Assembly: GCA_964628675.1 (NCBI GenBank)
Contig: CAZVPQ010000001.1
Location: 1 to 33,920 of the forward strand
Origin: an uncultured Hyphomicrobiales bacterium
GTDB taxonomy: Bacteria; Bacteroidota; Ignavibacteria; Kapaibacteriales; UBA2268
DNA: 33,920 nucleotides
Direction: 5' to 3'
How positions within the stretch are numbered: the stretch's first letter is position 1; every line of letters starts with the position of its first letter. Below are positions 187 to 29,800 of the stretch, piece by piece. The translations under genes and the position numbers were made by a program. The notes below the pieces were generated by a model. That model did not search any database, was not told the DNA's origin, and was given only the letters and a program-made list of their open reading frames with translations.

Positions 187-223
187 ATTTTAAATTAAAA
201 TATCCCATTTGAACAAGTTTTTC

Positions 224-249
224 AAGTCTATTAAATTAATTATAGACTT
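224..249. repeat. Perfect 8-bp inverted repeat AAGTCTAT-N10-ATAGACTT between the small ORF and the NRPS start; possible weak terminator or operator
   Basis: Read directly: 224-231 AAGTCTAT and 242-249 ATAGACTT, with a 10-nt AT-only loop. The stem is AT-rich and no clear T-tract follows, so the function is uncertain. Confidence 0.3.
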
Positions 250-285
250 AATTATGGTGTATTTAATACATAATTTTTAAGAGAA

Positions 286-10948: not shown

Positions 10949-10993
10949 GATGTTATATCTAACAAATTTAAAATTAAGTTATTAAAAAATATT

Positions 10994-12145: not shown

Positions 12146-12182
12146 TCTTACTTACAATTTATAAAATAAAATATTAGAATAG

Positions 12183-15100
12183 ATGAAAAAAGAATTAGCA
12201 AATCGGTTGTCATCAATGACGCCGGAAGAAATAAGGTCTCTTCTGAAAAGAAATCCAAAAAAATCTTTGGATAAGGCAAAAGAAAAATTAAAAATGGAAA
12301 GAAATGAGAAAGAGAAATATCCACTTTCAAGCACTCAGGAAAGGACTTGGTTTTTATGTCAATTAAATTCGGGAAGCCCAATAAATAATAATGCTTTTGC
12401 CATTAAAATGAAATCAAAAACCAGAGTAAAACCGGAAATCTTTGAACAAGCTCTGAAATTACTTGCCGATAGACATGAAATTTTACGGACATCATTTCAT
12501 AGTAGGAAAGGACGACCATTTCAAAAAATTCATAAATCCGTTGATTTCAAAGTTGAATATTTAGATTTACAGCATTTATCCAAGAGAAATAGAGAGGATA
12601 AAATTATTGGGGAAGCGGTCAAAGAAGCACATAAAATATTTGATTTATCTAAATGCCCATTGCTTAATTTTAAAATATTACATATTGAAAAAAATGAATA
12701 TGTCTATTTGATAACTCCACATCATATTATTTCCGATGGCTGGTCAAATGCTATTTTTTCAAGAGAATTTATACAGATATATACATCTTTGGTAAATAAT
12801 ACATCATTAAATCTTCCTGAATTGAACTACCAATATGTTGATTATGTCAATTGGGAAAAACATTGGTTACAAAGTGATAAATATAAAGAATACTTAAACT
12901 ATTGGAAAAAACAACTTGAAAATATAGAAGTTTTAGAGTTCCCGAAAGATTTCCAAAGACCAAATATTATGTCCACTGATGGCGCGATGGAAAGCATAGT
13001 TCTTGATGATAATTTAGCAAAAGAATTAAAAGATTTTAGCCAGCAAAGAGCTGTAAATTTATTTTCTACGCTTTTATCAATATTTAATATTCTTCTCTAT
13101 AAATATACAGGGCAAAATAATATTACAATCGGTACTCCGATGGCTAATCATAATAAAAATGAATTCCAAAATGTTATGGGAATGTTTTTAAATACTTTGC
13201 CTATACCTACTGTAATCAATGAAAATAATACATTTGTGGAATATATAAATCAAACAAGTAAAATTAGTCAGGGGGCATTTATTCATCAGGAGTTACCTTT
13301 TGACAAACTTATAGAAGAATTAAAACCTCCACGTGATATGAGCAAGCACCCTTTGTTCCAAATTATGTTTGTTTTTCAGAATATTCCTTCTCTTTATAAG
13401 ACCAATGGTATTGATATGATACCATTGAAAATCGATTATCATTTATCCAAATTCGATATTGATTTATGGGTCGAAGAAGCTGACAATAAAATGATAATAT
13501 CTCTTAAATATTTTACTGATTTATTTAAAAAATCCACTATTCGAAGGTTTTTGAAGCACTATCAAATTTTAATGAATGATGCAGTTTCAAACCCAAATAA
13601 AATGATTGTTGATTTGAATTATATTCCTAATGATGAAAAAATATTTTTGTTATCAAATGCTTCAAAACAAAAATTTAAAAATAGTGATAAAACGTTTATT
13701 GATTATTTTGAAAAGCAAGCAAATTCGCATAAAGAAAATTTAGCAGTACAATATCTTGAAAAAACAGTTTCTTATCAAGAGTTGAATGCTCTTGCAAATT
13801 CATTAGCTCATTATCTCAGAAAAAAAGGTATAAAAAAGGGAGATATAGTAGGTCTTATGACAAAGCGTTCCGAAAAGTCAATTATTGCTATGATAGGAAT
13901 AATGAAATCCGGTGCCGCGTATTTGCCTATTGATTCATCTACTCCTGCCGAAAGATTAAAATATATTATTGATAATTCTAAAATTAAAACAATTCTTACA
14001 GAGAAAATATTTAGTAAGAAGTTAAGAGATTATGAAATAGAACAAGTCCTTATTGATGAAAATTGGCAAAAAATCATTAATGAAGATAAAAATAATTTGG
14101 ATATAGATATTAATCTTTCCGATTTAGCTTATATTATCTATACATCAGGAACTACCGGAATGCCAAAAGGTGTTTGTATTGAACATAGGCAATTACTTAA
14201 TTATACTTTGTCAATATGGAGCAAGATGAAACTCCCGGGTATTAACCGTTTTGCAACCGTTTCATCATTGTCGGCGGATTTGGGCAATACAATGATTTTC
14301 CCTGCTCTCTCCAATGGTGCCTCGGTTAATATCATAGATGATGATTACCTGACAAATTTAGAACTTTTTTCGTCTTATATTGCAGGAAATAAAATTGATT
14401 GTATTAAACTGACTCCTTCACATCTCAATAGTTTACTGACGAGTGAAAATAAATCTGTTTTGCCTGAGAAACTTTTAGTTTTAGGAGGGGAAACATTGTC
14501 TTGGCAATTAATTGACAGGATCAGAAAACTTAAACCCGAATTACGAATCATAAATCATTATGGTCCAACAGAAACTACAACCGGTGTTTTGACTTATGAA
14601 ATCCCATTGTCGAATTATAAGAAAAAAGAACAATTTTCAGTTCCGATTGGATTCCCACTTGATAATTCGCAAATTTATATTTTAGATAAATATTTGAAAG
14701 TGGTCCCTATCGGAGTTAAAGGCGAAATATATATTGGAGGTGAAAATCTTGCAAATGGGTATATGAATAATTCGGAGCTAACGCAAAAATATTTTATTCA
14801 AAATCCTTTTAACATAAATGAAAGATTATATAAAACGGGAGATTTTGCGAAGTACCTTGATGACAACACAATTCTTTTTCTTGGTAGGAAAGACAAACAA
14901 GTTAAAATACGTGGATATAGAGTTGAATTAGAAGGAATTGAACAAATAATTTCTAATCATCAAGATATTATGCAGGTTGTTTTATTAAAGAAAAGTAAAA
15001 CCGAACAGCTGATTGCATACATTAAGTTTAAAGAAAACACAATAATAACAGAAGAAAGTTTAAGGAATTATCTAAAACCCAAACTGCCTACATATATGAT

Positions 15101-16316
15101 TCCCGATATTTTCATTTTTGTGGACGAGATTCCGATTACGAAAAATGGGAAAATTAATTTTGATAAATTGATTGCAATTGGCGAGAGTAAATCTGTTGAC
15201 GAACCATCTTCTCAAGCTCCGAGAGATAATTTAGAGTTGGAAATAACAAACGTTTGGAAAAAAATATTAAGCATAAATAAAATTGGTATAAATGATAACT
15301 TTTTTGAAATAGGTGGTCAATCTTTGATTGCTGTTGAATTATTTTCCGAACTACATAAGAAATTTGATATTGATTTGCCACTGTCAGTTTTATTTGAAAA
15401 CGGAACTATTAAAGATTTAGCAGAAATTATCAGGTCAAAAAATAAATATAGTAATAACTCTCCATTGGTAACAATTCAAGAAGGGGATAATAAAAGTCCG
15501 ATATTTTTAGTCCACCCTGCCGGTGGAAATGTGTTAAGTTATTATGATTTTAGTCAATCAATGGGCAAATCTTATCCCGTTTACGGCTTGCAATCAACTT
15601 TGGAATTGGATTGGAATTCTCCTGATTTCTCCATTAATAAGATGGCAAGATATTATTTAGACGTGATATTATCTTCGGGATTTAAACCTCCTTTTATTTT
15701 CGGTGGCTGGTCAATGGGTGCATTAGTTGCTTATGAAATGGCAATTATATGCCAAAAAGAAAATATTTCAATGCCATTAGTTATTGTAATCGACCAAGTA
15801 GCACCTGAAAATGACAAAGTTAAAAATTATCGACAAATCAATGAATTAGATCGTCTAACAATTTTTGCAGATAAAGTAGGGCATCTAATCAAACACAAAC
15901 TTGATATAACAAGAGAGCAATTAAACAATCTTACTGCAAAGGAAACTGCGAATTTGTTTTTAAATGAATTTAAAAAACATAATCTTGTGCCAGCTGATGT
16001 GCAATTAGAAAAATTCAAAGATTTTCTTGATATTATGATAAAACATAATGAAGTAACGATGGATTACAATCCCGAAATATACAATGGCAAGGTTCTAATT
16101 ATTAAAGCAGAGCATTCATTTGAAATTGATTCTTCATTGAAAAAAGCTTCGGAATTATTTAGACCAAGAGCCAAAGATTTAGGTTGGCAAGTATATATTA
16201 AGAATAATGTAAATATCATTCTTGTACCGGGCGATCATATTTCTATGATGACAAAACCTAATATCAATATTTTAGCAGAAAAACTAAAACATTGGATTGA
16301 AGATAATAATTTATAA
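12183..16316 (+). CDS. Non-ribosomal peptide synthetase termination module: (docking)-C-A-T-TE; A-domain code resembles Asp
   Basis: C (~12315-13622): HHIISDGWS. A (~13695-15173): IIYTSGTTGMPKG, NHYGPTETT, YKTGDF, GRKDKQVKIRGYRVEL, NGKINFDKL. T (~15216-15437): FFEIGGQSL. TE (~15481-16307): FLVHPAGGN, GGWSMGA (GxSxG), VPGDHISMM. The hand-extracted specificity code is DLTKVGHTGK. Confidence 0.95.
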   Translation: MKKELANRLSSMTPEEIRSLLKRNPKKSLDKAKEKLKMERNEKEKYPLSSTQERTWFLCQLNSGSPINNNAFAIKMKSKTRVKPEIFEQALKLLADRHEILRTSFHSRKGRPFQKIHKSVDFKVEYLDLQHLSKRNREDKIIGEAVKEAHKIFDLSKCPLLNFKILHIEKNEYVYLITPHHIISDGWSNAIFSREFIQIYTSLVNNTSLNLPELNYQYVDYVNWEKHWLQSDKYKEYLNYWKKQLENIEVLEFPKDFQRPNIMSTDGAMESIVLDDNLAKELKDFSQQRAVNLFSTLLSIFNILLYKYTGQNNITIGTPMANHNKNEFQNVMGMFLNTLPIPTVINENNTFVEYINQTSKISQGAFIHQELPFDKLIEELKPPRDMSKHPLFQIMFVFQNIPSLYKTNGIDMIPLKIDYHLSKFDIDLWVEEADNKMIISLKYFTDLFKKSTIRRFLKHYQILMNDAVSNPNKMIVDLNYIPNDEKIFLLSNASKQKFKNSDKTFIDYFEKQANSHKENLAVQYLEKTVSYQELNALANSLAHYLRKKGIKKGDIVGLMTKRSEKSIIAMIGIMKSGAAYLPIDSSTPAERLKYIIDNSKIKTILTEKIFSKKLRDYEIEQVLIDENWQKIINEDKNNLDIDINLSDLAYIIYTSGTTGMPKGVCIEHRQLLNYTLSIWSKMKLPGINRFATVSSLSADLGNTMIFPALSNGASVNIIDDDYLTNLELFSSYIAGNKIDCIKLTPSHLNSLLTSENKSVLPEKLLVLGGETLSWQLIDRIRKLKPELRIINHYGPTETTTGVLTYEIPLSNYKKKEQFSVPIGFPLDNSQIYILDKYLKVVPIGVKGEIYIGGENLANGYMNNSELTQKYFIQNPFNINERLYKTGDFAKYLDDNTILFLGRKDKQVKIRGYRVELEGIEQIISNHQDIMQVVLLKKSKTEQLIAYIKFKENTIITEESLRNYLKPKLPTYMIPDIFIFVDEIPITKNGKINFDKLIAIGESKSVDEPSSQAPRDNLELEITNVWKKILSINKIGINDNFFEIGGQSLIAVELFSELHKKFDIDLPLSVLFENGTIKDLAEIIRSKNKYSNNSPLVTIQEGDNKSPIFLVHPAGGNVLSYYDFSQSMGKSYPVYGLQSTLELDWNSPDFSINKMARYYLDVILSSGFKPPFIFGGWSMGALVAYEMAIICQKENISMPLVIVIDQVAPENDKVKNYRQINELDRLTIFADKVGHLIKHKLDITREQLNNLTAKETANLFLNEFKKHNLVPADVQLEKFKDFLDIMIKHNEVTMDYNPEIYNGKVLIIKAEHSFEIDSSLKKASELFRPRAKDLGWQVYIKNNVNIILVPGDHISMMTKPNINILAEKLKHWIEDNNL

Positions 16317-16333
16317 ACAAAATTAATACTACG

Positions 16334-17383
16334 ATGGAAAAAACATCTAATAATAAAGATAAAACAAAAGAATATGCTTCGATGATTGACAATTTTATTT
16401 ATGGCAATTGGCTCACAAGTATAACTTATACCTTTGCCGAATTAGCAATCGCTGATATTTTATATAAAAATCCTTTGGATATTGATGAGATTAGCAAAAG
16501 GACTGATACAAATCCGAAATTACTTAAAAGATTTCTCAGATGTGCCGCTAATCTTGGTTTTGTCAGAACAAGCGAAAACAAATATTACATTGCACCAATG
16601 GGAGATTTGTTAAGAACTGAGCATCCTCTCAGCAGAAGGGACGCCGCAAGACTCAACGGTGCTAATTATCGCTATCAGCCTTGGGGTTATCTTGTTGACA
16701 TTCTAAGGCAAGGCAATAGTCAATCGTTCTCACCAACTTTTGAAAAAGGTAGTCTCAATTATCTATCCGATAAGCCTGAATTACTTGAAGTATTTCATAA
16801 TGCTATGACAAGAATAACCGAAGAAGAAAATTTGCCGATTGTGTCTTCTTATGATTTTTCAAAGTTTAAACATATTGTAGATATTGGTTGTGGTCTCGGT
16901 AGTTTTCTAAAAACTATTCTCAGAGAAAATGAGCATATTAAAGGCACAATGTTTGATTTGGAATCGACATTAAATATGGAAGATAATATTATTGAAGATG
17001 ATTTAAAAGATAGACTTGATAAGGTATCAGGCGATTTTTTTAATGACACTATTCCTAATGCTGATTTATATATTTTGAAAAATGTAATTCATAATTGGAA
17101 TGAAGAAAACGCTTTAAAATTATTGAAAAATATTTATACTTCTATGTCTTCAGATAAAAATAATGTTGCAGATAAACGATTGCTTATAATTGAAAATACT
17201 ATTAAAGATAATGATGATTATAATATTGCAAATTGGATGGACTTGAATTTTATGATTTTAGTTGATGGTGCCGAAAGGTCTGTTAACGACTATAAATCTT
17301 TTGTTCAGGAAGCCGGTTTTAAAATATCAAATGTTATTCCTACTCCAACAGGGAGAGATATTATTGAATTAACAATAGCATAA
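16334..17383 (+). CDS. SAM-dependent O-methyltransferase (COMT-like / Methyltransf_2 family)
   Basis: An N-terminal dimerisation-like region is followed by the SAM motif VDIGCGLGSF, then DLYILKNVIHNWNEENALKLLKN (catalytic His context) and a C-terminus typical of small-molecule O-MTs. It lies 17 nt downstream of the NRPS stop. Confidence 0.85.
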   Translation: MEKTSNNKDKTKEYASMIDNFIYGNWLTSITYTFAELAIADILYKNPLDIDEISKRTDTNPKLLKRFLRCAANLGFVRTSENKYYIAPMGDLLRTEHPLSRRDAARLNGANYRYQPWGYLVDILRQGNSQSFSPTFEKGSLNYLSDKPELLEVFHNAMTRITEEENLPIVSSYDFSKFKHIVDIGCGLGSFLKTILRENEHIKGTMFDLESTLNMEDNIIEDDLKDRLDKVSGDFFNDTIPNADLYILKNVIHNWNEENALKLLKNIYTSMSSDKNNVADKRLLIIENTIKDNDDYNIANWMDLNFMILVDGAERSVNDYKSFVQEAGFKISNVIPTPTGRDIIELTIA

Positions 17384-17390
17384 AATTTTT

Positions 17391-18122
17391 ATGAAAAATA
17401 TTCTTGAATATTCGACAATTTTGGAAATGGAACTTGATGGAGAAAGTATTAAGTCGGGATTGCACATCGTTTTCGAAAACAATTTTTACAAGAAAATAAA
17501 TCCGAATGAATATCTTCATAAAGATGAATTAATTGAATTTGATAAAATTTCGAGTGATATTGTAAAGCATAATTTTTGTGCCGGTCGATACTCCGCAAAG
17601 AAATCAATTAGTTTGATTACTGGCGAGCAAGATTTAAAAGAGATGATTATTGAGCATGGAGTTTTCGGTTTTCCTATTGTCAAAAACTCAGAGAATTTAC
17701 AAGTTTCGATAGCTCATACCGATAGTTCTGCAGTAGCGATTTGTTTTAACGAAAAATCCCCGATGGGCATAGATATAGAAATTATAAAAGAAAAACAAAT
17801 TGATGTTATTGAAACACAGCTGACTCAATATGAGAAAGAATTAAGTAAGGATTTGGATATAAGCACAAATATTTTCTTCCATCAATTATGGACAAGCAAA
17901 GAAGCACTTGGCAAGGCAATAAAAACCGGTTTTACAATTCCAATGCTATTGTTTGAGGTTAATTCTATTGAAGACAATAAACAATTTATGCTTTTATTCT
18001 TCAAACATTTTGAACAATTTAAAGCGGTTTCTCTAAAGATTAATGAGAACTATATATTATCTATTGTGCTTCCGAAAAGTATTGATATTAATAATTTATT
18101 TTCCATAAATCAAAATTATTAA
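17391..18122 (+). CDS. 4'-phosphopantetheinyl transferase (Sfp type)
   Basis: Motifs: MGIDIEIIKE (G-x-D-x-E) and WTSKEALGKA ((W/F)xxKE(A/S)xxK). The 243-aa size fits Sfp-type PPTases. It is the last gene of the plus-strand operon. Confidence 0.8.
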   Translation: MKNILEYSTILEMELDGESIKSGLHIVFENNFYKKINPNEYLHKDELIEFDKISSDIVKHNFCAGRYSAKKSISLITGEQDLKEMIIEHGVFGFPIVKNSENLQVSIAHTDSSAVAICFNEKSPMGIDIEIIKEKQIDVIETQLTQYEKELSKDLDISTNIFFHQLWTSKEALGKAIKTGFTIPMLLFEVNSIEDNKQFMLLFFKHFEQFKAVSLKINENYILSIVLPKSIDINNLFSINQNY

Positions 18123-19581
18123 TACCGTCGGGTTCACTTGGTAATTGCCCGATTTGATATTTCAAATTAACCAAATCAATAGCAATCTGAACTTTTAAAT
18201 TTTCATAAGTAATGTTTGCTTTTATATAATCTTGATGAGAATTTGTTACGTCAATTTGAGTAGCCAGGCCCATTTTAAATTTCTCATATTCGTTATAATA
18301 AACTTGTTCGTATAATTTCACATTTTCTTTTTGGTTATTATACATTCCCAATGCATCATTAATACCACTAATGATATTTTTAACATTATTTTTTACATCG
18401 AATGCGAATTTATTTAAACTAATATTTTGTGATTCCAACTCTGATTTCTTTGAAATATATATACCCTCATAAACTGCTTTTTGAAAAGGTAGCATATATG
18501 ACAAAGACAAAGTAAAACTGGAACCCGGAAAATGTCCGTCAATTGCACTCAATAATTTATTCCAATCCTCATTTTGTTTTAAACCGTAATAATTATATTG
18601 CAAATTCAGATTTATATCTTCTTTGAGGTCATTTGATGCGCCCTTTACTTCCAATCCAGTAGCTGAAACGTTCATTGCAAGACTTTGATAATCTTTTCTG
18701 TTTTTAATAAGAGAATCAATATTTGTATTTATAAATTGAAAATAATTTGTAAAATTCAATTTATCAAAGTCGGGATATTTATCTAAAAATGTAGGAATTG
18801 TCTTATTGTCAGTATGTCTTACGATACCTAAAATTTGATTTAAATTATACAATGAATTATGCAAAGATTTCTCGGCATTGGTCATTTCAATTTTGATACT
18901 GTTGTAATAGGCGTTGGTTCTAAGCATTTGAGATTTCGGGAGCTGGTCTTTATCCACTAAAGTTGCTATATCGTGTTTGTATTTCTCGACATATTCAGAT
19001 ATTTTTTTATAGAAATTATAAACATTAGTGTTACTGTAGGCAACAAGATAAGATTCGGAAATAAATTTAATCAATTGGCTAATTCTATAAGCGTAATCTT
19101 TCTTTTCGGCATTGTATTGAAGTTCAGATGCTTTTAAATTTGCATTATTTGCATTGTTTTCACCGAGACCTTTGAAAAGCGGCAAATCAAGCCCCAGCCA
19201 AACACCTTCCGAATTATTGATTGATTGAGGATTAATAACATTTGTCCTTGATAAGTTCAAACCTGAATTAAGCGATAAACCGTAATTAGTGGGCAGAACA
19301 AATTCAGTGTTGAAATCAAACATATCTTTGTAGGAAACAGTCGGGTCGTTGCCTGTATTTGTATTGAGACTATAATGAAAAAACGGGTCGAATCTCCCCT
19401 TGTTCCTCAAGACTTTACCTTTACTATTTTCGATTGCCGTTTTTTGTAATTTAATATCAAAATTATTACTTATACCCTCTTTAATTAAATTTTTTAAAGA
19501 AAGTTGCATTGTTGTATTTTCTTGTGCAACAAAATTAAAGCCGAGAAGCAAAATAAAATAAATTATATATCTTTTTTTCAT
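18088..19581 (-). CDS. TolC-like outer-membrane efflux protein
   Basis: N-terminal signal peptide (MKKRYIIYFILLLGFNFVAQ). The 497-aa length and the two-repeat helical/beta composition are typical of outer-membrane factor proteins. It is the last gene of the HlyD-ABC-ABC-OMP operon. Family assignment rests on context plus composition rather than sharp motifs. Confidence 0.7.
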   Translation of the reverse strand: MKKRYIIYFILLLGFNFVAQENTTMQLSLKNLIKEGISNNFDIKLQKTAIENSKGKVLRNKGRFDPFFHYSLNTNTGNDPTVSYKDMFDFNTEFVLPTNYGLSLNSGLNLSRTNVINPQSINNSEGVWLGLDLPLFKGLGENNANNANLKASELQYNAEKKDYAYRISQLIKFISESYLVAYSNTNVYNFYKKISEYVEKYKHDIATLVDKDQLPKSQMLRTNAYYNSIKIEMTNAEKSLHNSLYNLNQILGIVRHTDNKTIPTFLDKYPDFDKLNFTNYFQFINTNIDSLIKNRKDYQSLAMNVSATGLEVKGASNDLKEDINLNLQYNYYGLKQNEDWNKLLSAIDGHFPGSSFTLSLSYMLPFQKAVYEGIYISKKSELESQNISLNKFAFDVKNNVKNIISGINDALGMYNNQKENVKLYEQVYYNEYEKFKMGLATQIDVTNSHQDYIKANITYENLKVQIAIDLVNLKYQIGQLPSEPDGINNFDLWKINY

Positions 19582-19629: not shown

Positions 19630-22527
19630 CTATGCTAACTGACGTTTAGCTAAATTCTCGAAAAATCCTTTTTGTACCATAAGTTCTTCATAGTTACCTT
19701 GCTCAACTACTTTCCCATTGTCCATAACGAAAATAATATCTGCATCTTTAATCGTACTTAATCTATGGGCAATAACTATTCTTGTAGCATTTAATTTATT
19801 AACGTAATCACTAACAATTTTTTGGGTTTCGTTATCCAAAGCCGATGTGGCTTCATCAAAAATGAATATTTTCGGATTTCTCACCAATGCACGGGCAATA
19901 ATTATTCTCTGTTGTTGACCGCCGGATAGTGTGCCACCACCTGCGGGGAGTATAGTTTGCATTTTCTGAGGAAGATTTTCAATATCTTTATCACAACCGG
20001 CCATTTTTGCCGCTCTCCAAGCATCCTCTTCTGTCAATGTAGAATTACCGATAATATTAAATAAAATCGAACCTTGCATTATTTTACTATTCTGCAAAAC
20101 CACGCCTAATTGTTCTCTTAAATCTCTAATATTAATATCAGAAATTTCTTTGCCGTCAAAGAAAATTGAACCTGAAGCGTATTTTTCAAACCCGAGTAAT
20201 ATACGCATCAATGTTGATTTTCCTGAGCCCGAACTACCGACAAGAGCAACAAATTGCCCGGCTTTCATTTTTAAGCTAACATCTTTCAATATTAAATCCT
20301 GATTATCCTCATATTTAAAATTAATATGCGATACTTCGATATTACCGTTCAAATCTCCCGGATCTTGTTTGTCGTCAGCTTCCATCGCGGCAGTTAATAT
20401 CGGTCTAATCAAATCAAACGTCGGTTTAATTGTAATAAATGGTACTGTCGCCATAGCCATCTGCAATAATGCACCTTGAAAACTACCAAACGCAGTATTA
20501 AAAGCCAAGAAATCACCCATTGAAATTAGCGAATGAGTAAATAAAGAATGAACTTTGATGAATATAACCATAGAGCCAAACACAGGAAATATTGATGTGA
20601 AAACCGCCGCCCAGACTAATAATTTTCTTTTTGCTACATAATTTTCTTTTTGCTTGGCAAATTTCTTAGTCCATAATGCAAAAACACTATCCTTGCTGTC
20701 CGTAATTCTAATCTTATTTATACCACTTAAAATTTGCAGAAGAAAACCCGATATAATGGCTTCCATTCTTTTAATTTGAACTATATATTTATATGCAAAG
20801 AAACTAATTGTTATCGTAAATGCAACAATAATTAATCCCAAGAACAAAGCAAAAATTGCTAATTCCCAACTATAATAAAATAGTAAAGCAAAATAGAAAA
20901 CCGAAAAAATTGCCGAGACCAAAGAATGAATAACTACATTTGAAATTGATTCTTTTATTTGCTCAATGCCCATACTTCTTTCAGCCAAATCACCCGGATT
21001 ATACTTTCTGAAAAAGTTCACTTCGAGAGATAAAATTCTGTCCCAAATAGCAGATTGCAATTTATAACTTGCCGTGCCTTGCGCCCTGAGTATAGCAATT
21101 GATTTGGCAAAATTAAGTATAGCCATTACGATAGCTACCGAAACAAGTAGTATTGCTATTTGCAATAGTTCAGGTGTACTCCCTGACGGAATAACATTAT
21201 TAAAGATATAACCGACAGAAATAGGCAATAGCAATGCTAACAATGCCGCCGCAATTCCAATTATGAAAAATGCTATTATGTCTTTATAAGTAAACTTCAA
21301 TGCAAATTTCATCATATCTTTGCCTGTGATTTTCTTCTTAGGCAAAGGCGTATAGAAGCTATAAGCATAAGGCAGCAGCTTTGTTGCTATATCTTCGTTT
21401 ACAATAGTTTTTGTATGATTTTGAATATCAATTAAATAATAAGATGAATTATTTTTCGGTATCAAAGCCACAGGAGTTTTATCTTCTTTCCAAAAACCGA
21501 GCAAAGCACCGTGAAAACTATTTTGCCAATTAAAATCAAGGTTTACTTTTCGACTTCTAATATTAGAAGTTTTTAAAATCATCTGGAACTGAGTTAATTT
21601 CGAGTTCTTTTTTGGTTTAGGTTTTTTAAATTCAATTTTTTCATATTCCCCGACGATAGAGCAAGCTTTGAATAATAAATCCAAAGAATTATCAATATGA
21701 TCTACGAATAGTTTTTGCTCAGTACTTTTTTCACCGGGAATAATTTCTTTTAAGTTATAAATAGCATTTGCTTTGGTTTTTTCCTTATATTTCGCCGCCA
21801 CATTAATCTGATTTAAAGAGTCTTGCAAATATTCCGTATGTAATGAATTGAGGATTTTATCAATTTCTTTGTTGAAATAAAATAAGTAGTCTGTAAAACT
21901 ATCTTTCTGGATAATTTCTTCAGTCGAAAATTGATTAATCTCGGCAGTTTCATAAAATTGATACCAAAAGTTTTTTGCACTTGGCAAATAAGTTTTTTTG
22001 TCTGATTTTATTTCATATTTATCAAACAATTTAATTGAAGTATCCGGTAGGTCAAACCATATAATTTCATCGAAATTAGGCGGACAAAAAACCGAACCTT
22101 TTTTAACTGTAATATTTTTTTGAGTATCACTAAAAGTAAAGAGCGAGGGCATACCGTATTTATTTATACGATTTGCCATTTTATCAATCCAACTATTGAT
22201 AAGTCCGCTAAACTCATCAATATTCTTTTTCGATATTTCATTAATTGAGATCTTGTCTAATTCAACAACTTCGGTTTCGGAACTAGTATTGATAACAATA
22301 TCATAATTTTCTTGCATCGGGGAAGAAGGTATTAGAAAAGGTGCTTCAATACGTGCAATAAAATTTCGTTTGCCATAGTCACCATCTTTTTTTTCTATAT
22401 AAAATATATCACTTTGACCTTCTGCTAAATAATAAAATACTTCTTCTTTGTTCTGCAGAGAAAACAGAGTGTTGCTTTTTAATTTATTATCAGCATTTGC
22501 AATATTTAATAATATTTCTTTTTCCAC
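19630..22527 (-). CDS. ABC transporter permease/ATPase with a ~400-aa N-terminal extension (NHLP/NHLM bacteriocin-export ABC2-like subunit)
   Basis: NBD: GSSGSGKST (Walker A), LSGGQQQRIIIARAL (signature), IFIFDEATSALD (Walker B), IAHRLST. Six-helix TMD from ~aa 408. N-terminal extension: beta-barrel-like segment (aa ~25-70), then a degenerate C39-like segment (LDFNWQNSFHGALLGFWKEDKTPVALIP...YAYSFYTPLP) as in this exporter family. GTG start at 22527, 1 nt after the upstream stop. Confidence 0.85.
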   Translation of the reverse strand: MEKEILLNIANADNKLKSNTLFSLQNKEEVFYYLAEGQSDIFYIEKKDGDYGKRNFIARIEAPFLIPSSPMQENYDIVINTSSETEVVELDKISINEISKKNIDEFSGLINSWIDKMANRINKYGMPSLFTFSDTQKNITVKKGSVFCPPNFDEIIWFDLPDTSIKLFDKYEIKSDKKTYLPSAKNFWYQFYETAEINQFSTEEIIQKDSFTDYLFYFNKEIDKILNSLHTEYLQDSLNQINVAAKYKEKTKANAIYNLKEIIPGEKSTEQKLFVDHIDNSLDLLFKACSIVGEYEKIEFKKPKPKKNSKLTQFQMILKTSNIRSRKVNLDFNWQNSFHGALLGFWKEDKTPVALIPKNNSSYYLIDIQNHTKTIVNEDIATKLLPYAYSFYTPLPKKKITGKDMMKFALKFTYKDIIAFFIIGIAAALLALLLPISVGYIFNNVIPSGSTPELLQIAILLVSVAIVMAILNFAKSIAILRAQGTASYKLQSAIWDRILSLEVNFFRKYNPGDLAERSMGIEQIKESISNVVIHSLVSAIFSVFYFALLFYYSWELAIFALFLGLIIVAFTITISFFAYKYIVQIKRMEAIISGFLLQILSGINKIRITDSKDSVFALWTKKFAKQKENYVAKRKLLVWAAVFTSIFPVFGSMVIFIKVHSLFTHSLISMGDFLAFNTAFGSFQGALLQMAMATVPFITIKPTFDLIRPILTAAMEADDKQDPGDLNGNIEVSHINFKYEDNQDLILKDVSLKMKAGQFVALVGSSGSGKSTLMRILLGFEKYASGSIFFDGKEISDINIRDLREQLGVVLQNSKIMQGSILFNIIGNSTLTEEDAWRAAKMAGCDKDIENLPQKMQTILPAGGGTLSGGQQQRIIIARALVRNPKIFIFDEATSALDNETQKIVSDYVNKLNATRIVIAHRLSTIKDADIIFVMDNGKVVEQGNYEELMVQKGFFENLAKRQLA

Positions 22528-22528
22528 T

Positions 22529-24712
22529 TTAACTAAGTTTTATAAGTTTATAATAATAACCTTCTTTGTCTTGAATCATCTCATCGTGAGTACCTCTTTG
22601 AACTACCTTGCCTCTGTCCATAACAATAATCTCATCACAATCCCTAATAGTACTCAATCTATGAGCTATAATAAGAGTAGTACAACCTCTTTTTCTTATA
22701 TTGCTATCAATGATTTGCTCCGTGTTGGGGTCTAATGCACTTGTAGCTTCGTCTAAAACAAGTAAAGTTGGATTTTTTGCCAAAGCTCTTGCTATCTCAA
22801 TTCTTTGTTTTTGACCACCGCTAAAATTAGCACCGCCCGGTGCAACCATACTATCATAAGCATTAGGTCTCACCGAAATAATATCGTGAATAGCGGCATC
22901 TTTGCTTGCTTCAATTATATCAGATTTTTTGACATTCTTATTCCACATCGTGATATTGTCATTAACAGTACCCATAAAAAGGAAAATATCTTGATCGACC
23001 ATAGCCATAGAATTGCTTAATACTTCCAATTGATATTCTTTTAATTCCTTGCCGTCAATAATAATTTTCCCGTCCCAAGGTTTATACAATCCCATAGCAA
23101 TTTTTGCTATTGTTGATTTACCGGAGCCTGAACCGCCAATCAAAGCAACTCTTTTACCGGGTTTAATATCTAAAGAAAAATCTGAAATTAAAGGTTCGGC
23201 AAAACTATCATATCCGAAGGTAATATTTTTTAGTTCCAAATGTCCCGTAAGTTTTGCTTCTTCCAATAGAAATTCTTTTTTTCCAATTCTTTCTTCATTA
23301 ATAAAAACCGGGTCCAGCGGATTGCTCATAGCGTCGTCAATAGTTCGTACATAGCTAATCGCTTCTTCGATTTTGCCACCCATTCCGACAAGTTCTTTAA
23401 TAGGTGCCGAGAAATTTGACATTAAACTTTGAAATGCTATTAGCAAGCCGATAGTAATTTCGCCGTGAATTATCAATAAAGCACCGAATGAAATAATAAT
23501 GATATTATTTAAATTTGTAAGAAAATCAGGCAAAGCATCTAGAAATCTATCTGTGAATCCCAATTCTTGGTCTTTGTTTACCATTTCGGCTTGATATCCT
23601 GACCACAAAGCAAAAAAATCATTTTCACTTCCTGTGGATTTAATTGTCTCTATCATCTCCAGACCGATACCACCCGTACTGAATGTTTTACCTCTATTCT
23701 GAAATTGTTTTTGATTTAATGTTATCTTTTTTGTAGAAATAATTTTCAATGTAATTAAATTTATTAAAGCGAACGAAACCCCGATGATAGTTAGAATTAC
23801 ATTGTAGTAAAACATTATTACAGCGAAAAATATTATTGAAAGTAAATTCAAAGTGTTCTTCGCTAAATCTTCAGAGAGTACTTGAGCCAAGGTATCATTG
23901 AGCTGTACTCTTTTAATAATCTCACCTGAATGTCTTTCTTGGAAAAAACTAAGTGGGAGTTTGAAAACATGCATAAAAAATTTAGCTGATTGGCTTAAAG
24001 CCATTTTTATTTCTAATTTCAATAATACTTGTTGCTGTAACCAAGTTACTAAAGCATTAAATACAAGGACAATGCCCATCGCCAGCATCAATGGTTTATA
24101 CCAATCGACTTGCCTAAATACCAAAACATCATCAATAAATACTTTGTAGAATCCGGGGATAAGAATACCCGGTATTATCAATAATAAACCGCATAACAGA
24201 ATAAAAATTAAATCTTTTTTACTACCTGATAATCTTTCGGCAAGAGAAGCAATAACAGATTTCTTCTTGCCACCTGCCACAAAATCATCATTAGTTTGGA
24301 ATTCCATAACCAAGCCGTTAAAAGAAGATTGAAACTCCTGTTTTGTAATTTTTTTTCTTCCGGAATCGGGATTATTGATTATATATTTATCATTTTTTAT
24401 TTCCGTTAAAACGGCAAAATCATTCTGCCCCCAACCGATAATCATTGGGAAATTTTTGTCTTTGATTGATAATAAATCACAAGTGGAAACTTGAGAATCA
24501 AAACCGTATTTTTTTGAAGCAATGATTAAACGTTCTTTGTTTGTTCCATTAGTTGTAACCCCACATTCGGAACGCATTTTCTCAGGTGGTATAAAAAGCC
24601 CATGATAAGCAAATATCATAGACAATGAAACAGCCCCTGATTCAGCGTTTTGAGTCTGTAATATTACCGGAACTTGTTTGCTTTTGTAACTTGTTTTATT
24701 CTTGTTTGCCAT
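22529..24712 (-). CDS. ABC transporter with an N-terminal C39-peptidase-like domain (NHLP/NHLM bacteriocin-export ABC1-like subunit); the peptidase catalytic residues appear substituted
   Basis: N-terminus: VPVILQTQNAESGAVSLSMIFAYHG...ECGVTTNGT...FPMIIGWGQNDFAVL...IINNPDSG, which is a C39 fold pattern. TMD follows. NBD: GGSGSGKST, FSGGQKQRIEIARAL, LLVLDEATSALD, IAHRLST. ATG at 24712. Confidence 0.9.
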   Translation of the reverse strand: MANKNKTSYKSKQVPVILQTQNAESGAVSLSMIFAYHGLFIPPEKMRSECGVTTNGTNKERLIIASKKYGFDSQVSTCDLLSIKDKNFPMIIGWGQNDFAVLTEIKNDKYIINNPDSGRKKITKQEFQSSFNGLVMEFQTNDDFVAGGKKKSVIASLAERLSGSKKDLIFILLCGLLLIIPGILIPGFYKVFIDDVLVFRQVDWYKPLMLAMGIVLVFNALVTWLQQQVLLKLEIKMALSQSAKFFMHVFKLPLSFFQERHSGEIIKRVQLNDTLAQVLSEDLAKNTLNLLSIIFFAVIMFYYNVILTIIGVSFALINLITLKIISTKKITLNQKQFQNRGKTFSTGGIGLEMIETIKSTGSENDFFALWSGYQAEMVNKDQELGFTDRFLDALPDFLTNLNNIIIISFGALLIIHGEITIGLLIAFQSLMSNFSAPIKELVGMGGKIEEAISYVRTIDDAMSNPLDPVFINEERIGKKEFLLEEAKLTGHLELKNITFGYDSFAEPLISDFSLDIKPGKRVALIGGSGSGKSTIAKIAMGLYKPWDGKIIIDGKELKEYQLEVLSNSMAMVDQDIFLFMGTVNDNITMWNKNVKKSDIIEASKDAAIHDIISVRPNAYDSMVAPGGANFSGGQKQRIEIARALAKNPTLLVLDEATSALDPNTEQIIDSNIRKRGCTTLIIAHRLSTIRDCDEIIVMDRGKVVQRGTHDEMIQDKEGYYYKLIKLS
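24293..24673 (-). other. C39-like domain with Ser at the catalytic Cys position and Asp at the catalytic His position
   Basis: Family consensus ...LQMEAxECGAA... reads LQTQNAESGAV here (Ser25, codon TCA at 24638-24640). Consensus ...NHFxVL... reads QNDFAVL here (Asp98, codon GAT at 24419-24421). The oxyanion Gln (LQTQ) and the downstream Asp (NNPDSG) are retained. The alignment was done by eye against remembered ComA/LagD/NHLP-exporter consensus. Confidence 0.7.
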
Positions 24713-24730
24713 AATTTTATGTATTTATTC

Positions 24731-25987
24731 TTATTCCCAATACTTTTTAAAGATTGGCACAATGAAATCAATAGGAGCTTTTTCTTTAACTGAAACCGAG
24801 CCTAAACATAATGTACCGCTAACAACAGTATAGGAAGGACCTTTTTTGCTTGTCCATTTAAATTTACTAACAGTCGTAGAATCTTTTTTCAACTGTATAG
24901 TTATTCTGTACTTTGGACCTTGGCTGTTTAACAAATTCACAAGCTCATCGTTTTCCAGACTTTCCATAATGCTCGCTGTCGGAGATGAAAAATGATTAAC
25001 TCTAATAACTTTTCCGATTATCTGACCGAATTTTTCTTTATCAACAGTAAACGGATTTATTTGAGCGTCCTGCCCTACTTTAACATCGGCATTGGAATTA
25101 AAAGGAATGTAAAGGTCAACTATATAATTTTTGTTTTTTCTATTTTCTAATTTTTCAATAATAAAAAGTGTCATAGAAGCACCAACAATATCGCCATAAG
25201 AAACCATTTGGGATACTATTATGCCGTCAGTTGGGGCTTTTATCATAGTTTGTCGGTTATATTCTTTATTTAAATCCGCAATTTTTTTCTTTAATACTTT
25301 TATCTGAGAAGCTAAATTATCCTTGTCCATTGATTTTGACAGTTGCCATTCTTCCATAGAAATAGCCAATTGCTTTTGCTGAGCATTAGTATTATTCAAT
25401 AATATTTTTAGGTCTTCAATTGCTTCTTTAGTTAACTCATATTCTATTTTAGTAACAAGTCCTTGTTTAAGAAGTTCTGTCTTTTTTTCTAAATTACTTT
25501 TTTTAAATGAAATTTTTTGTTTTATACTTTTTAATTGCTTTTCGATTTTCTCAGATTCGGTTTTATAAAAGTTAGCTTTTGAAACTCGCTCTTGAGAATC
25601 AGAATTCAGGAGAACGGAATCTTGGAGTTCCAAACCTTTTAATTGCAAATTTACTTCATTTATGGAAGATAAAAGTTCAGGTTGTGTCAATTGTAATAAT
25701 ACTGTCCCTTCTTTTACTGTATCTCCAAGTTCGTGGTATAAATCTACAACTGAACCTGAATACTTCGTATTTACTTTAAAAATACCTGATTTTAGTTTAA
25801 TCAAACCAATTCCATTTACTTTTTGTGGAATTGTTCCCCATAGTCCCCATATCACAGTTAGAAGAGTAAAGGCACTCAGTCCTATAAGCAATATCCAAAA
25901 ACCGGGTTTTGTAATTTTGATTAATCTGTCAAGTCCTTCCGGAGATTGCGTTTCTCTCTGATTCTCTTGGCTATTGTTGTTTTTCAT
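24731..25987 (-). CDS. HlyD-family membrane fusion / secretion protein
   Basis: N-terminal cytoplasmic tail plus a single TM helix (FWILLIGLSAFTLLTVIWGLWG). This is followed by a lipoyl-like segment, a long coiled-coil (aa ~100-240) and a beta-barrel C-terminus. It is the first gene of the exporter operon, 18 nt upstream of the C39-ABC gene. Confidence 0.85.
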   Translation of the reverse strand: MKNNNSQENQRETQSPEGLDRLIKITKPGFWILLIGLSAFTLLTVIWGLWGTIPQKVNGIGLIKLKSGIFKVNTKYSGSVVDLYHELGDTVKEGTVLLQLTQPELLSSINEVNLQLKGLELQDSVLLNSDSQERVSKANFYKTESEKIEKQLKSIKQKISFKKSNLEKKTELLKQGLVTKIEYELTKEAIEDLKILLNNTNAQQKQLAISMEEWQLSKSMDKDNLASQIKVLKKKIADLNKEYNRQTMIKAPTDGIIVSQMVSYGDIVGASMTLFIIEKLENRKNKNYIVDLYIPFNSNADVKVGQDAQINPFTVDKEKFGQIIGKVIRVNHFSSPTASIMESLENDELVNLLNSQGPKYRITIQLKKDSTTVSKFKWTSKKGPSYTVVSGTLCLGSVSVKEKAPIDFIVPIFKKYWE

Positions 25988-26098
25988 TTTTATTTCTTAA
26001 AAAAGTCCGATAAAATTTTTAAAACTACTCAGTATAAAAATAACATTGATTTGAATAAAAAAATATTAGCTACTAAATCTTTCTGAATATTGTATATA

Positions 26099-26303
26099 CC
26101 TAATTAATATCAAATTTGCCATCTTTTACCTTTTGAATCATTGCTCTAATTTTTACATTAAATTCTTCATCTTTTGAATATTTCCTTATGGCTTCGTCAA
26201 ATGATTTATCATTTTGAACTTCATTGTATAGTATTAATAATTTTGTTTTTCAACTCAGCATTTTGTGTGATTCCATTAAGGATAGCATCAATATTACTGC
26301 TCA
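26099..26303 (-). pseudogene. Small ORF paralogous to 1-186, interrupted by a 1-nt frameshift; it sits in the precursor-peptide position upstream of HlyD
   Basis: The minus-strand ATG at 26303 has GAAGGA (26313-26318) 9 nt upstream. It opens MSSNIDAILNGITQNAELKNKIINTIQ* (stop 26220-26222). A +1 shift at about 26225 continues as NEVQNDKSFDEAIRKYSKDEEFNVKIRAMIQKVKDGKFDIN* (stop 26099-26101). The joined product aligns with the 1-186 product across the junction (KSKIIKTINEVQN vs KNKIINTI-NEVQN). Relative to copy 1-186, this copy carries one extra base. Confidence 0.65.
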
Positions 26304-26882
26304 TTGCTATTAATCCTTCTGATTATATAACTAAATTAATACTTACTTAATAGGTTCTAAAAATGCAATTATTTAATAAATAAATGAAAAAGATATCAAG
26401 AACCCAGTAAATATCTATTAAGTATAAAACGTTTAAAATAACTAAATATTATTCGTATATATAAATAATTGATTTTTTTATTTGTTTAGATAATATTACC
26501 AAATATTTTAACATATTTTGCTACAAAATCAATCATTATTATTTTTTTATATTGAAATTTGCTTATTATCGGCTATGATATAATTGTTAATGAATTTACT
26601 TTCTTAATTGCTATTCAAATTCTTTCACCATTTGATTTTTATCTTTGTGATCCATTTGTTTGTTACTTTGTTTTTTGTTCTTTGGCATCTTCAAAAAACG
26701 GATATTCTATTACATTACATTAAGTTGTTTTTTAGAACGTCCAATAAATAATTATATGTTTTTTTGAAGTAAATTATTATATTTAAAATTGTGCAAGAAA
26801 CAGATTTGAAATATTAACTTATTTATTGATAGTAAGTTCTTAATTGTTATAATTAAATAATATAGATTTTTCTTTTCAAAAG

Positions 26883-29800
26883 GTGAAAGAAATGGGAACT
26901 CCAATATATAAATTAGGTATAGATGTAGGTTCTACGACGGCAAAGGCGGCATTAATAAACTCAGATTTATCAGTAGCTTTCTCGGATTATCAAAGACATC
27001 ACGGCTCAATAATAGATACTGTAATCAATATCATTAAAAAAGTACAAAGCCAATTTGGGAATATAGAGTTAAGTGTTGCAATAACCGGTTCGGCTGGTAT
27101 GGGCATCTCGGAAAAAACGAAAATACCATTCCTGCAAGAATTAATTGCTTCTTCTGAATTTGTTGATAAATTTCATCCTGAAATCAAAACTTTGATTGAT
27201 ATTGGCGGTGAAGATTCTAAAATTATTTTCTTTGATGATAAATCAGGGCACGATTTACGAATGAACGGTAGTTGTGCAGGTGGCACAGGCTCTTTTATCG
27301 ACCAAATGGCGAGTTTGCTTGATGTTACTTTGCCGGAGTTGGACGAGTTGGCTTCTCAATACAAAGAAATTCATTCAATAGCATCAAGGTGCGGCGTTTT
27401 TGCCAAAACCGACGTACAGAATTTGTTGAGTCGTGAAATACCAAGACCCGATATATGTGCTTCAATCTTTGACGCAGTTGCTTTACAAATAAAAAATTCT
27501 CTACTACGTGGTAAAGAAATAATTCCAAAAGTTGTTTTCGCAGGCGGTCCTTTAAAATTCCTATCTAATTTAAGAGAATCAATGAAAAGAATTTTTGAAA
27601 TTGACGAAGAAGATATTTTACATTTGGAACATCCCGAATTATTGCCTGCTATTGGCTCTGCTGTGGCTGATAATATTGACAGACCTATATGGGAAATCAA
27701 CACATTAATTGAGAATTTGATAAAATCAAAGAAGGTTTCTATTGTTTCCGATAGCAATATCAAACCCTTGTTTGAAGACAACATTGAATACTTGGAATGG
27801 AAAGAATTCAAATCCAATATCAAAGCTCCGAGAATTGATATTAGTGAACTGAATAATAAGGAATGTTTTTTGGGTATTGACTCCGGTTCAACAACAACTA
27901 AAATTGTGCTAATTGACCAAGACAATAAAATAGCTTTTGATTTTTATCAAAATAATAATGGTAAACCAATCGAAAGTGTAAAAAAAGGCTTGTTGGAATT
28001 AAAAAAACAATGTAATGAAAATAATATTAACCCTATCATAAAAACATCGACGGTAACAGGCTATGGTGAAGATTTAATCAAATCCGCTTTTAATATTAAT
28101 TATGGTATTGTTGAAACTATTGCGCATTATAAAGCCGCAAAAGTATTTGATGACAAGGTTAGCTTTATTCTTGATATTGGTGGTCAAGATATGAAAGCGA
28201 TTTTTGTTAAAGACGGTATAATTCAAAATATAGAAATCAATGAGGCTTGTTCTTCGGGTTGCGGTTCATTTATCGAAACATTTGCAAATTCTTTGGATTA
28301 TACTGTTGAAAAATTTTCAGAGATAGCTGTATCGGCTTACAATCCTTGTGATTTGGGAACTAGATGCACCGTATTTATGAACTCTAAAGTCAAGCAATCT
28401 TTTAGAGAGGGCGCCCCTGTATCGGATATATCAGCTGGTTTGGCATATTCAGTTGTTCAAAATTGTTTGCATAAAGTTCTTAAAATCTATGATAATTCGG
28501 TTTTGGGTAACAATATTGTTGTGCAGGGCGGAACTTTCAAAAATGCCGCTGTTCATCGTGCTTTCGAGAAAATATCAGGTAAAAAAGTAATATCACCCGA
28601 TATATCGGAATTGATGGGAGCTTATGGTTCGGCTATCATTGCAAAAAATTTGTATTATCAAGATAAAGCTATTATAAAAGAAGACTTTAATTTAGATAAT
28701 ATTGAAAATATTGGCAAGTACGATGTTAAATTTACTGTATGCAGAGGTTGCGAAAATCATTGCAAAGTCAGTCGCTTGAAGTTTGAGAATGGAAATATAT
28801 TTTTCACGGGGAATAGATGCGAAAGAGTATTTTCCAATAAAGGCACTAAAACGGAAAGAGGGCAAAATCTTGTTCAATATAAATATGATTTGTTATTTGA
28901 TAGAGAATTGAAACCCAATGGAGAAATAAAACAGAAAATAGGAATTCCAAGAGCTTTGAATATGTTCGAGAATTTCCCGTTTTGGACTACTTTGTTCACG
29001 GAAACAGGTTTTGAAGTTGTTTTGTCGGATAAGACAAGCGAAACAACAGCTCACATAGCTTCCGGTACATTGATGTCTGATAACATATGTTTCCCGGCAA
29101 AGATTACTAACGGGCATATCTTAAATTTGATTAATCAAGATGTCGATAGGATATTTTATCCTATTATAAATTTTGAAAAGAAAGAATTTAATGAAATGTC
29201 TAATAGCTTCAATTGTCCGGTCGTAACCGGTTATCCTACTGTTATAAAAAGTGCTATTAATCCCTCGGAGAAATACGGTATTCCTTATGATACACCGAAT
29301 ATAAATTTCAAAACCGAAAAATTATTAAAACAAGCCTGCTATAATTATTTTTCGACTCTCGGCGTTAGTAAAAAATCTTTCAATAAAGCTTTTAAGAAGG
29401 CATTAGCAGAGTTTAAAAAATTCAAACAATTGATTAGAACAAAAGCATCGGAGATTTTAATTCAATCTACTATTGATAATAGAAAAGTCATTGTATTGGC
29501 TCAAAGACCTTACCAAATTGACCCGATTGTTAATCACGGCATTCCCGAGATGATAGCCGATTTCGGCTACGATGTTATCACAGAAGATTCCTTGCCTTAT
29601 ACAGATGAAGATACTGTTGATAATTTGGTTGTGCTATCTCAATGGGGTTATCCAAACAGATTATACAGAGCGGCAAAATGGGCATTACGTTTTGATAATG
29701 TAGAATTCATACAGCTTAATAGTTTCGGTTGCGGTCCCGATACATTGGTGATAGACGAAATTGCTGATTTGATGGAGCTTTCGGGCAAGCCCCACTCCGT

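Follow-up and report, generated by a model that had tools for sequence, protein, structure and literature searches.

A twice-frameshifted small gene upstream of an NHLP-type exporter operon is probably a decaying duplicate of the first gene of the convergent NRPS-PKS operon

In the 33,920-nt window analysed here, which is an entire contig, a small minus-strand locus at 26304-26066 (hereafter copy B) lies upstream of an HlyD gene, and a paralog (copy A) lies at 1-186 on the plus strand. Judged from the sequence and its comparisons, copy B is probably a pseudogene, a redundant copy, in inverted orientation, of the gene that opens an NRPS-PKS operon; it occupies the start of the convergent exporter operon and is decaying there. 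Three explanations had been proposed for its frameshift in the original prediction, namely an indel error, a genuine pseudogene and recoding, and the evidence presented below favours the second.

Structure of copy B

The features of the locus are as follows.

26314-26319, minus strand: SD-like motif GAAGGA, 9 nt before the ATG of copy B, as read from the sequence
26221-26304, minus strand: segment 1, an ATG-initiated frame of 27 codons with a premature TGA, corresponding to ancestral residues 1-26
26226-26227, minus strand: first insertion, of a single base (A26227 or C26226), with a shift of frame; from the DNA alignment to copy A
26103-26225, minus strand: segment 2, 41 codons in the +1 frame (NEVQ...FDIN)
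26102-26103, minus strand: second insertion, of a single T, by which the TAG at 26102-26100 arises; from the DNA alignment to copy A
26066-26101, minus strand: segment 3, the ancestral C-terminal tail and TAA, in the third frame

The small minus-strand ORF that had been described as stopping after 27 codons is real and can be read directly from the sequence, with its start codon at 26304-26302 (one base away from the 26303 given before) and its stop at 26223-26221. Its product, MSSNIDAILNGITQNAELKNKIINTIQ, is 69% identical to residues 1-26 of P0001 (tblastn), an intact 79-residue protein. The GAAGGA motif with its 9-nt spacing had been counted among the few of its kind in the window, and it proved to be the sole AGGA-type motif among 14 gene starts checked.

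An extra base had been suspected near 26225, and the alignment to copy A places it at 26226/26227, where copy B reads ACTATACAATG and copy A reads ACTAT-TAATG. A second insertion at 26102/26103, where copy B has AATTAGG and copy A has AAT-AAA, had been overlooked. The continuation that was expected beyond the first insertion is indeed present in the +1 frame from 26225 to 26103; its translation is NEVQNDKSFDEAIRKYSKDEEFNVKIRAMIQKVKDGKFDIN, and it ends at the TAG at 26102-26100. The ATG of HlyD (25987) follows that TAG after 112 nt, rather than 111 nt. Past the second insertion, the DNA homology between copy B and copy A runs for another 36 nt to a common TAA (26068-26066) and then ends. Segment 3 comprises 11 codons, and in the repaired translation its tail is RYIQYSERFSS*, compared with KYMQFSEKFSR* in copy A and KYMQYSDKYGKR* in P0001. 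Because the homology crosses the second insertion to the common TAA, the ancestral ORF of copy B had 78 codons; removal of both extra bases gives a 78-aa protein (26304-26066), not the 67-aa product that had been assumed.

Homology thus flanks each frame disruption and the downstream parts have no start of their own, which is the pattern of a frameshift pseudogene. We rejected segment 2 as a separate downstream gene, since a search of its frame for ATG, GTG and TTG found none until the last 13 codons. An alternative genetic code was also rejected: with TGA read as sense, the zero frame meets another TGA and then a TAA within five codons.

Programmed recoding would require two +1 ribosomal frameshifts (at CAA-U-GAA and AAU-U-AGG), which together would restore the full-length product and place it under translational control. 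At both sites a zero-frame stop (TGA, then TAG) does stand exactly where a +1 shift restores the ancestral frame, and copy B has kept its ATG and SD-like motif. However, the P-site codons CAA and AAU could not re-pair after a +1 shift, neither site has an internal SD-like stimulator upstream of it, an Rfam scan at the gathering threshold returned nothing in the window, and the intact homologs need no shift. Moreover, off-frame stops near an insertion are expected by chance in a sequence of 31% GC. Recoding is therefore barely credible as an explanation.

Origin of the insertions

The exact HlyD protein is also encoded on a Logan contig (L001, from run SRR8443420), and this contig is identical to the window across the 404 nt upstream of HlyD, both insertions included. 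The second assembly comes from another pipeline and excludes an assembler artefact; a read-level artefact shared by the two assemblies is formally possible. Neither insertion lies within a homopolymer run, and two independent insertion errors outside homopolymers, both repeated by a k-mer assembler, are very unlikely.

The proposal that the frameshifts are sequencing or assembly errors and that the gene is intact in the organism can appeal to the fact that the two assemblies may share reads, and to the pairwise dN/dS of copy B (0.18-0.26; see below), which would fit a gene that was functional until recently. It would nevertheless need two separate errors, neither in a homopolymer run and both reproduced exactly by a different assembly pipeline, and the nonsynonymous rate on the copy B branch is independently elevated. 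We regard this proposal as highly improbable.

An orphan family of small helical proteins

An exhaustive HMMER search of 1.84 billion representative proteins with a two-copy profile revealed P0001 (79 aa, intact) as the only true relative (E 3.9e-34, profile positions 1-77); the two other matches were repeat proteins. A word-indexed search of 5.8 billion proteins with a three-sequence profile again retrieved only P0001, and a word-indexed protein search with the 67-aa repair retrieved nothing. No relatives were found when the small-protein profile was run against species-representative genomes, and JGI metagenome contigs yielded nothing either by profile or by a degenerate DNA pattern for FDEAIRKYSNDE. 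The known members of the family are thus three sequences, with about 15 billion proteins surveyed. Repaired copy B is 63% identical to P0001 over the full length, with all three frame segments matched end to end, and copy A is 74% identical to P0001.

The family protein is hydrophilic (GRAVY about -0.75), free of Cys and has a pI of 8-9. Its AlphaFold2 model, of low confidence (pLDDT 62), contains five short helices. An internal repeat relates residues 14-42 to residues 44-70 (p about 0.002 in P0001), and the most conserved stretch across the three members is the middle, with the C-terminal half also conserved. The protein has no significant match in Pfam or NCBIfam, a Foldseek search of the model against the PDB returned nothing below E=1.5, and a profile search of PDB sequences returned nothing below E=0.02.

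MbtH-like proteins (PF03621) are small partners encoded in NRPS clusters. The family resembles them in its length of about 70-80 residues and in lying beside, and codirectional with, an NRPS gene for an adenylation domain, but it differs in being predicted to be all-helical, in lacking the Trp/Pro signature and in having an internal repeat. No match to PF03621 was seen for P0001 or the 78-aa repair at E<=10; for the 67-aa repair and the fragment of copy A the limit was E<=1, again with no match. An MbtH-like identity was accordingly rejected.

Selection on the copies

Changes were assigned to branches by three-taxon parsimony over codons 18-78, and the counts are small (21 changes on the copy B branch).

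Copy A branch: 11 synonymous and 4 nonsynonymous changes, p=4e-6 versus neutral
P0001 branch: 9 synonymous and 12 nonsynonymous changes, p=0.007 versus neutral
Copy B branch: 6 synonymous and 15 nonsynonymous changes, p=0.16 versus neutral

As far as these codon changes can tell, the copy A branch shows purifying selection. The pattern on the copy B branch differs from that on the copy A branch (Fisher p=0.017) and cannot be told apart from neutrality; copy B thus evolves under relaxed constraint, a conclusion that is independent of the indels. The pairwise dN/dS between copy A and P0001 is about 0.10, and therefore the family represents a real protein-coding gene. For copy B, the pairwise values are 0.18 versus copy A and 0.19-0.26 versus P0001, well below 1, and the synonymous divergence of the copies is near saturation (dS about 1). 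Taken together, these values indicate an old duplicate that probably worked as a gene for some of its history before being inactivated; its disabling insertions may be recent.

With its multiple small indels, premature stops, raised nonsynonymous rate and homology across frames, copy B is like ordinary frameshift pseudogenes of redundant paralogs. It is unlike them in that its parent family is an orphan of three members and in that its ATG and SD-like motif are intact.

Genomic position of the intact gene

The two features at the beginning of the window are as follows.

1-186, plus strand: copy A, of which 61 codons and the stop are visible and undisrupted; it is truncated near codon 18 by the end of the contig
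301-18122, plus strand: NRPS-PKS operon headed by copy A, from Pfam scans

The paralog that had been pointed out at 1-186 is present as described: its visible part carries no disruption and is 70% identical to copy B at the amino-acid level. The longest inverted repeat in the window is formed by these two copies (28-150 versus 26103-26225, 123 nt ungapped, 80%). About 115 nt separate copy A from the NRPS start (ATG 301), and the operon that follows encodes an NRPS (A-T-C-A-T), a PKS (KS-AT-KR-DH-T), an enoyl reductase, a second NRPS (C-A-T-TE), an O-methyltransferase and a PPTase. On another Logan contig (L002), the gene for P0001 precedes that of a 1681-aa NRPS by about 180 nt; this contig is collinear with positions 1-8170 of the window (amino-acid identity of 74% for the small gene, 67% for the NRPS and 74% for the PKS). 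Given this collinearity, the conserved position of the intact gene is the first in the NRPS-PKS operon. Both intact copies are thus found directly upstream of orthologous NRPS-PKS operons, not of the exporter.

The original prediction expected a small ORF to be conserved at the exporter position in related genomes, and this is not what we found. In five related exporter loci with readable upstream DNA (L008, L009, L010, L011 and L013), neither a homolog of copy B nor a plausible small ORF was present upstream of HlyD. One of them, L008, comes from the same sample as P0001 and is orthologous (HlyD 81% and ABC1 85% identical); there, a 412-nt spacer upstream of HlyD neither resembles copy B nor contains a plausible ORF, and synteny with the window stops exactly at the HlyD start. 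The others are L009, L010 (52%), L011 (44%) and L013 (50%, a Bacteroidota MAG). Among the loci compared, a copy of the gene upstream of HlyD is thus peculiar to the genome analysed here. Two of the five show no NRPS on their contigs. A scan of species-representative genomes with ABC1 detected no close relatives of the exporter; together with the empty profile scan, this places the source lineage outside that genome set. The suggestion of an "orphaned exporter" is likewise wrong, because the cluster still contains an intact copy and no adjacent precursor gene is present throughout the exporter clade.

It is possible, though doubtful, that a duplication carried the 5′ module of the NRPS operon, with its promoter, SD-like site and first gene, to the front of the exporter operon and so brought the two operons under shared control. 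In that case only the regulatory DNA or the translation of a short ORF would still matter, and the coding sequence could decay freely. Both convergent operons are headed by a copy, an AAGGA is also found upstream of P0001 in L002, giving an AAGGA-N8/9-ATG context common to copy B and P0001, and the break of synteny with L008 falls where copy B lies. On the other hand, when the DNA preceding copy B was compared with that preceding P0001, no homology could be detected, the short AT-rich matches being of the kind expected by chance, and the upstream region of copy A lies outside the contig. The promoter scans were uninformative: searching 25900-26950 for sigma-70 promoters and terminators gave no more than chance would, and the Bacteroidetes -7 motif TAnnTTTG, with 69 matches against 57 expected, had none on the minus strand within 25988-26882. 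A duplicated 5′ module is compatible with copy B being a pseudogene, and the two explanations are not mutually exclusive.

With regard to function, the intact protein may serve the NRPS-PKS cluster within the cell, in an accessory or regulatory role, and not be a cargo of the exporter, because its NRPS-proximal position is conserved, the gene is absent beside related exporters and the protein has no leader-core architecture. On these sequence-level grounds we put the suggestion forward tentatively, as having a little less than an even chance of being correct.

Comparison with Nif11-type precursors

The N-terminus of copy B had been thought to resemble a Nif11-type leader, and the locus had been taken for the precursor gene of the exporter. 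Nif11-type precursors (N11P; TIGR03798, a subset of PF07862) carry a ELSDEELEAVAGG-type motif ending in Gly-Gly (motif 2) and, after it, a short core that is hypervariable and rich in Cys, Ser and Gly (Haft et al. 2010, PMC2887384). Against TIGR03798, repaired copy B scored 14.1 bits (E 0.041, or 0.069 for the 78-aa repair) with a cutoff of 32.3, and the alignment joined its residues 26-50 to model positions 10-34, a register different from that of the proposed N-terminal pattern. P0001 and copy A gave no match to TIGR03798, which leaves the broken copy as the only one with any similarity, and PF07862 gave no match at E<=10. When the same protein was shuffled, 3 of 10 shuffles scored 14-15 bits against unrelated families; a score of 14 bits is therefore noise for this composition.

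Other characters of the precursors were also sought. As had been noted before, copy B contains no double-glycine motif (GG/GA/GS). P0001 has GG at residues 10-11 and 31-32, which align with NG and ND, respectively, in copy B, and the latter pair with NG in copy A. In the three family members we found no ELSDEELEAVAGG-type motif, no acidic ELS..EL context, no variable core rich in Cys, Ser, Thr or Gly and no Cys at all, and the internal repeat covers both halves of the protein. RiPP-modifying enzymes (LanM, cyclodehydratase, radical SAM) were looked for among the large ORFs of the window and none was present. As to the neighbourhood, it is the broken copy that lies beside the TIGR03794/03796/03797 exporter.

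Copy B is similar to Nif11-type precursors in being a small ORF that starts with MS, is predicted to be helical, lies upstream of a TIGR03794/03796/03797 operon and has a paralog in the genome. It differs from them in its score below the cutoff, its conserved C-terminal half, its lack of Cys, the inactivity of the cognate peptidase and the position of the intact copies with an NRPS. We therefore rejected a Nif11-like precursor (TIGR03798/PF07862) on the profile, the Gly-Gly motif and the core. The position of the intact copies and the absence of such a gene from related exporter loci also speak against the site being that of the exporter's precursor gene.

The exporter and its C39-like domain

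The genes of the exporter operon are as follows.

24731-25987, minus strand: HlyD-type adaptor (TIGR03794, 263.8 bits, cutoff 156.2)
22529-24712, minus strand: ABC1, with a non-catalytic C39-like domain (TIGR03796, 906.1 bits, cutoff 853.3)
19630-22527, minus strand: ABC2, with a 283-aa N-terminal extension (TIGR03797, 816.7 bits, cutoff 709.4; match from residue 284)
18088-19581, minus strand: outer-membrane efflux protein (OEP/TolC-like), the last gene of the operon (PF02321, 83.4 bits)

The three equivalog HMMs that exceed their cutoffs on contiguous genes (25987-19630, minus strand) identify an NHLP export system. The N-terminal 400 aa of ABC2 had no match in Pfam.

The best alignment of the C39 domain of ABC1 was to LahT150 (PDB 6mpz; E 1.6e-23). 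The catalytic triad of LahT is Cys27/His101/Asp117 (PMC6363468), and the corresponding residues of ABC1 are Ser25/Asp98/Asn114. The earlier description of this domain as dead thus holds, and it extends to the whole exporter clade, in which 6 of 6 members have Ser at the Cys position (within an invariant AESG) and no His. An active PCAT (C39 peptidase) was rejected for ABC1 on the absence of the Cys/His/Asp triad. Across the clade the C39-like domain shows 44-76% identity. As these alignments indicate, the inactive C39 is a conserved, clade-wide state and not a sign that the exporter was orphaned by the loss of copy B.

Type I secretion ABC transporters of the HlyB type are described as having a non-catalytic C39-like domain (Lecher et al. 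2012, Kanonenberg et al. 2013, as cited in PMC6363468). ABC1 resembles them in its N-terminal C39 fold without the catalytic Cys and His and in being encoded together with an HlyD-type adaptor and a TolC-like protein. It is unlike them in belonging to the NHLP family (TIGR03796, 906 bits; TIGR01846, 408 bits against a cutoff of 726), in being paired with a second ABC protein (TIGR03797), in having no RTX-type substrate nearby and in the replacement of Cys by a conserved Ser.

Given that C39-like domains tether uncleaved substrates (PMC6363468), the small protein could be an uncleaved cargo or partner of the exporter, recruited by the C39-like domain of ABC1 as in HlyB, in which case copy B would be a recently lost second cargo gene and copy A would still supply the protein. 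Copy B does head the exporter operon and copy A belongs to the same 26-kb cluster; conservation of the C39-like domain in its inactive state points to a binding role that has been kept; GG 31-32 of P0001 is preceded by hydrophobic residues at -4, -7 and -15; and TIGR03798 is the second-best NCBIfam match of repaired copy B. Against these points, that GG is shared by neither copy A nor copy B, the intact copies are positioned with the NRPS, and the five related exporter loci lack such a gene, two of them with no NRPS on the contig. In addition, the internal repeat crosses the supposed boundary between leader and core, the middle of the protein is the most conserved part with no variable core, and the TIGR03798 score is at the level of shuffled sequences. 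We thus consider an uncleaved cargo unlikely. A more specific version, in which the orphan protein is a new kind of uncleaved partner or cargo of an undescribed NHLP-type branch with two ABC proteins, the C39 domain has turned into a Ser-substituted recognition domain and copy B is a recently inactivated second cargo gene, appears slightly less likely still. That version, if true, would tie together three things within one Bacteroidota-like cluster: a ribosomally made small protein, a type-I-like exporter and a hybrid NRPS-PKS pathway.

Proposed history of copy B and its significance

Returning to the pseudogene that we favour, its history may be outlined as follows. The parent gene would encode an orphan protein of 78-79 residues, hydrophilic, all-helical and Cys-free, whose home is the first position of the NRPS-PKS operon. 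A copy of the gene would have come to lie, inverted, in front of the convergent exporter operon, an event that was either lineage-specific or followed by loss without trace in the nearest relative. Copy B would then have come under relaxed constraint and gained its two separate one-base insertions, with the outcome that translation from its ATG can yield no more than an N-terminal fragment of 27 residues. We infer that copy B no longer makes a functional protein, although an intact ATG and SD-like motif may still allow synthesis of the fragment. The exporter would be independent of copy B, as a member of a clade with a uniformly non-catalytic C39 domain and without an adjacent small precursor gene.

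Our analysis carries a correction, in that proximity to an NHLP-type exporter together with a helical "MS..." start is insufficient to call a Nif11-type precursor. It also provides a clear case of paralog decay beside a biosynthetic cluster, with two insertions and relaxed substitutions. Copy B itself is an ordinary object, the frameshifted relic of a paralog, from an unusually rare family. The side results may outweigh the pseudogene, namely an orphan small gene that heads an NRPS-PKS operon and a clade with a Ser-substituted C39 domain. For a TIGR03796 exporter clade with a uniformly inactive C39, the substrate cannot be a conventionally cleaved double-glycine peptide. A further observation concerns translation initiation: the SD-like motif of this rare family stands in a genome that, at the 14 gene starts checked, is otherwise without such motifs.

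Conserved, non-catalytic C39-like domain of the exporter clade

In all six exporters of the clade compared (those of the window and of the related contigs L008, the closest relative, and L010 to L013), the catalytic cysteine of the C39-like domain is replaced by serine within an invariant AESG motif and the catalytic histidine is absent. Despite the missing residues, all six still match the TIGR03796 'peptidase/permease/ATPase' family. The C39-like domain of this clade is a conserved, non-catalytic domain within the NHLP exporter family.

C39-like domains (AESG present, histidine absent in each)
Window, 24230-24712, minus strand
L008, 9043-9520
L010, 5359-5840
L011, 4026-4505
L012, 1292-1771
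L013, 2293-2757

Synteny upstream of HlyD

Comparison of the regions upstream of HlyD (window 25988-26882 and L008 7358-7769) revealed that synteny with the closest relative is lost exactly at the HlyD start codon. L008 carries pstSCAB-phoU-phoBR in the same orientation at this place, and the window carries copy B, the frameshifted small gene, followed by a divergent gene for a 1442-aa CoA-enzyme-activase. Synteny stops at the HlyD start and the neighbours differ; therefore, the end-point of a rearrangement coincides with copy B.

The small gene and its copies

An SD-like motif, AAGGA, stands before the small gene wherever upstream sequence is available, namely at copy B in the window and on contig L002, which encodes the intact homolog P0001. 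Among 13 further gene starts of the window that were inspected, none has an AGGA, GGAG or GAGG motif, and the AAGGA of the small gene is an odd exception in an apparently SD-poor, Bacteroidota-like genome of 31% GC.

Window, 26314-26318, minus strand, AAGGA of copy B
L002, 566-570, plus strand, AAGGA of the P0001 gene
L002, 579-818, P0001, with its internal repeat (residues 14-42 versus 44-70)

The repeat unit of P0001 is about 28 residues long (NNEELKKKIVNTINEIQGGKSFDEAIRKY versus NDEKLISKIKSMIAKVKSGE-FD--IDKY), and its alignment scores 40, compared with a mean of 20.8 (sd 4.3) for shuffles. Copy B, the decayed one, shows this repeat less strongly. Copy A, the paralog heading the NRPS-PKS operon, is interrupted at about codon 18 by the end of the 33,920-nt contig (window position 1). 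Its full-length protein was not found in the protein collection searched, which suggests that assemblies break inside copy A, possibly due to a repeat or strain variation.

Operon layout and ABC2

The hybrid cluster comprises an NRPS (A-T-C-A-T), a PKS (KS-AT-KR-DH-T), a stand-alone enoyl reductase, an NRPS (C-A-T-TE), an O-methyltransferase and a PPTase. The NRPS-PKS operon (plus strand) and the exporter operon (minus strand) are convergent, their 3′ ends overlapping by 35 nt (18088-18122).

301-18122, plus strand, hybrid NRPS-PKS cluster
Ending at 18122, plus strand, PPTase gene, end of the NRPS-PKS operon
Ending at 18088, minus strand, outer-membrane efflux protein gene, end of the exporter operon
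21679-22527, minus strand, N-terminal extension of ABC2, residues 1-283

No Pfam match was found in the N-terminal ~283 residues of ABC2, the partner exporter protein, whose TIGR03797 match begins only at residue 284. Homologs of similar length are encoded on L010 (943 aa) and L011 (888 aa).
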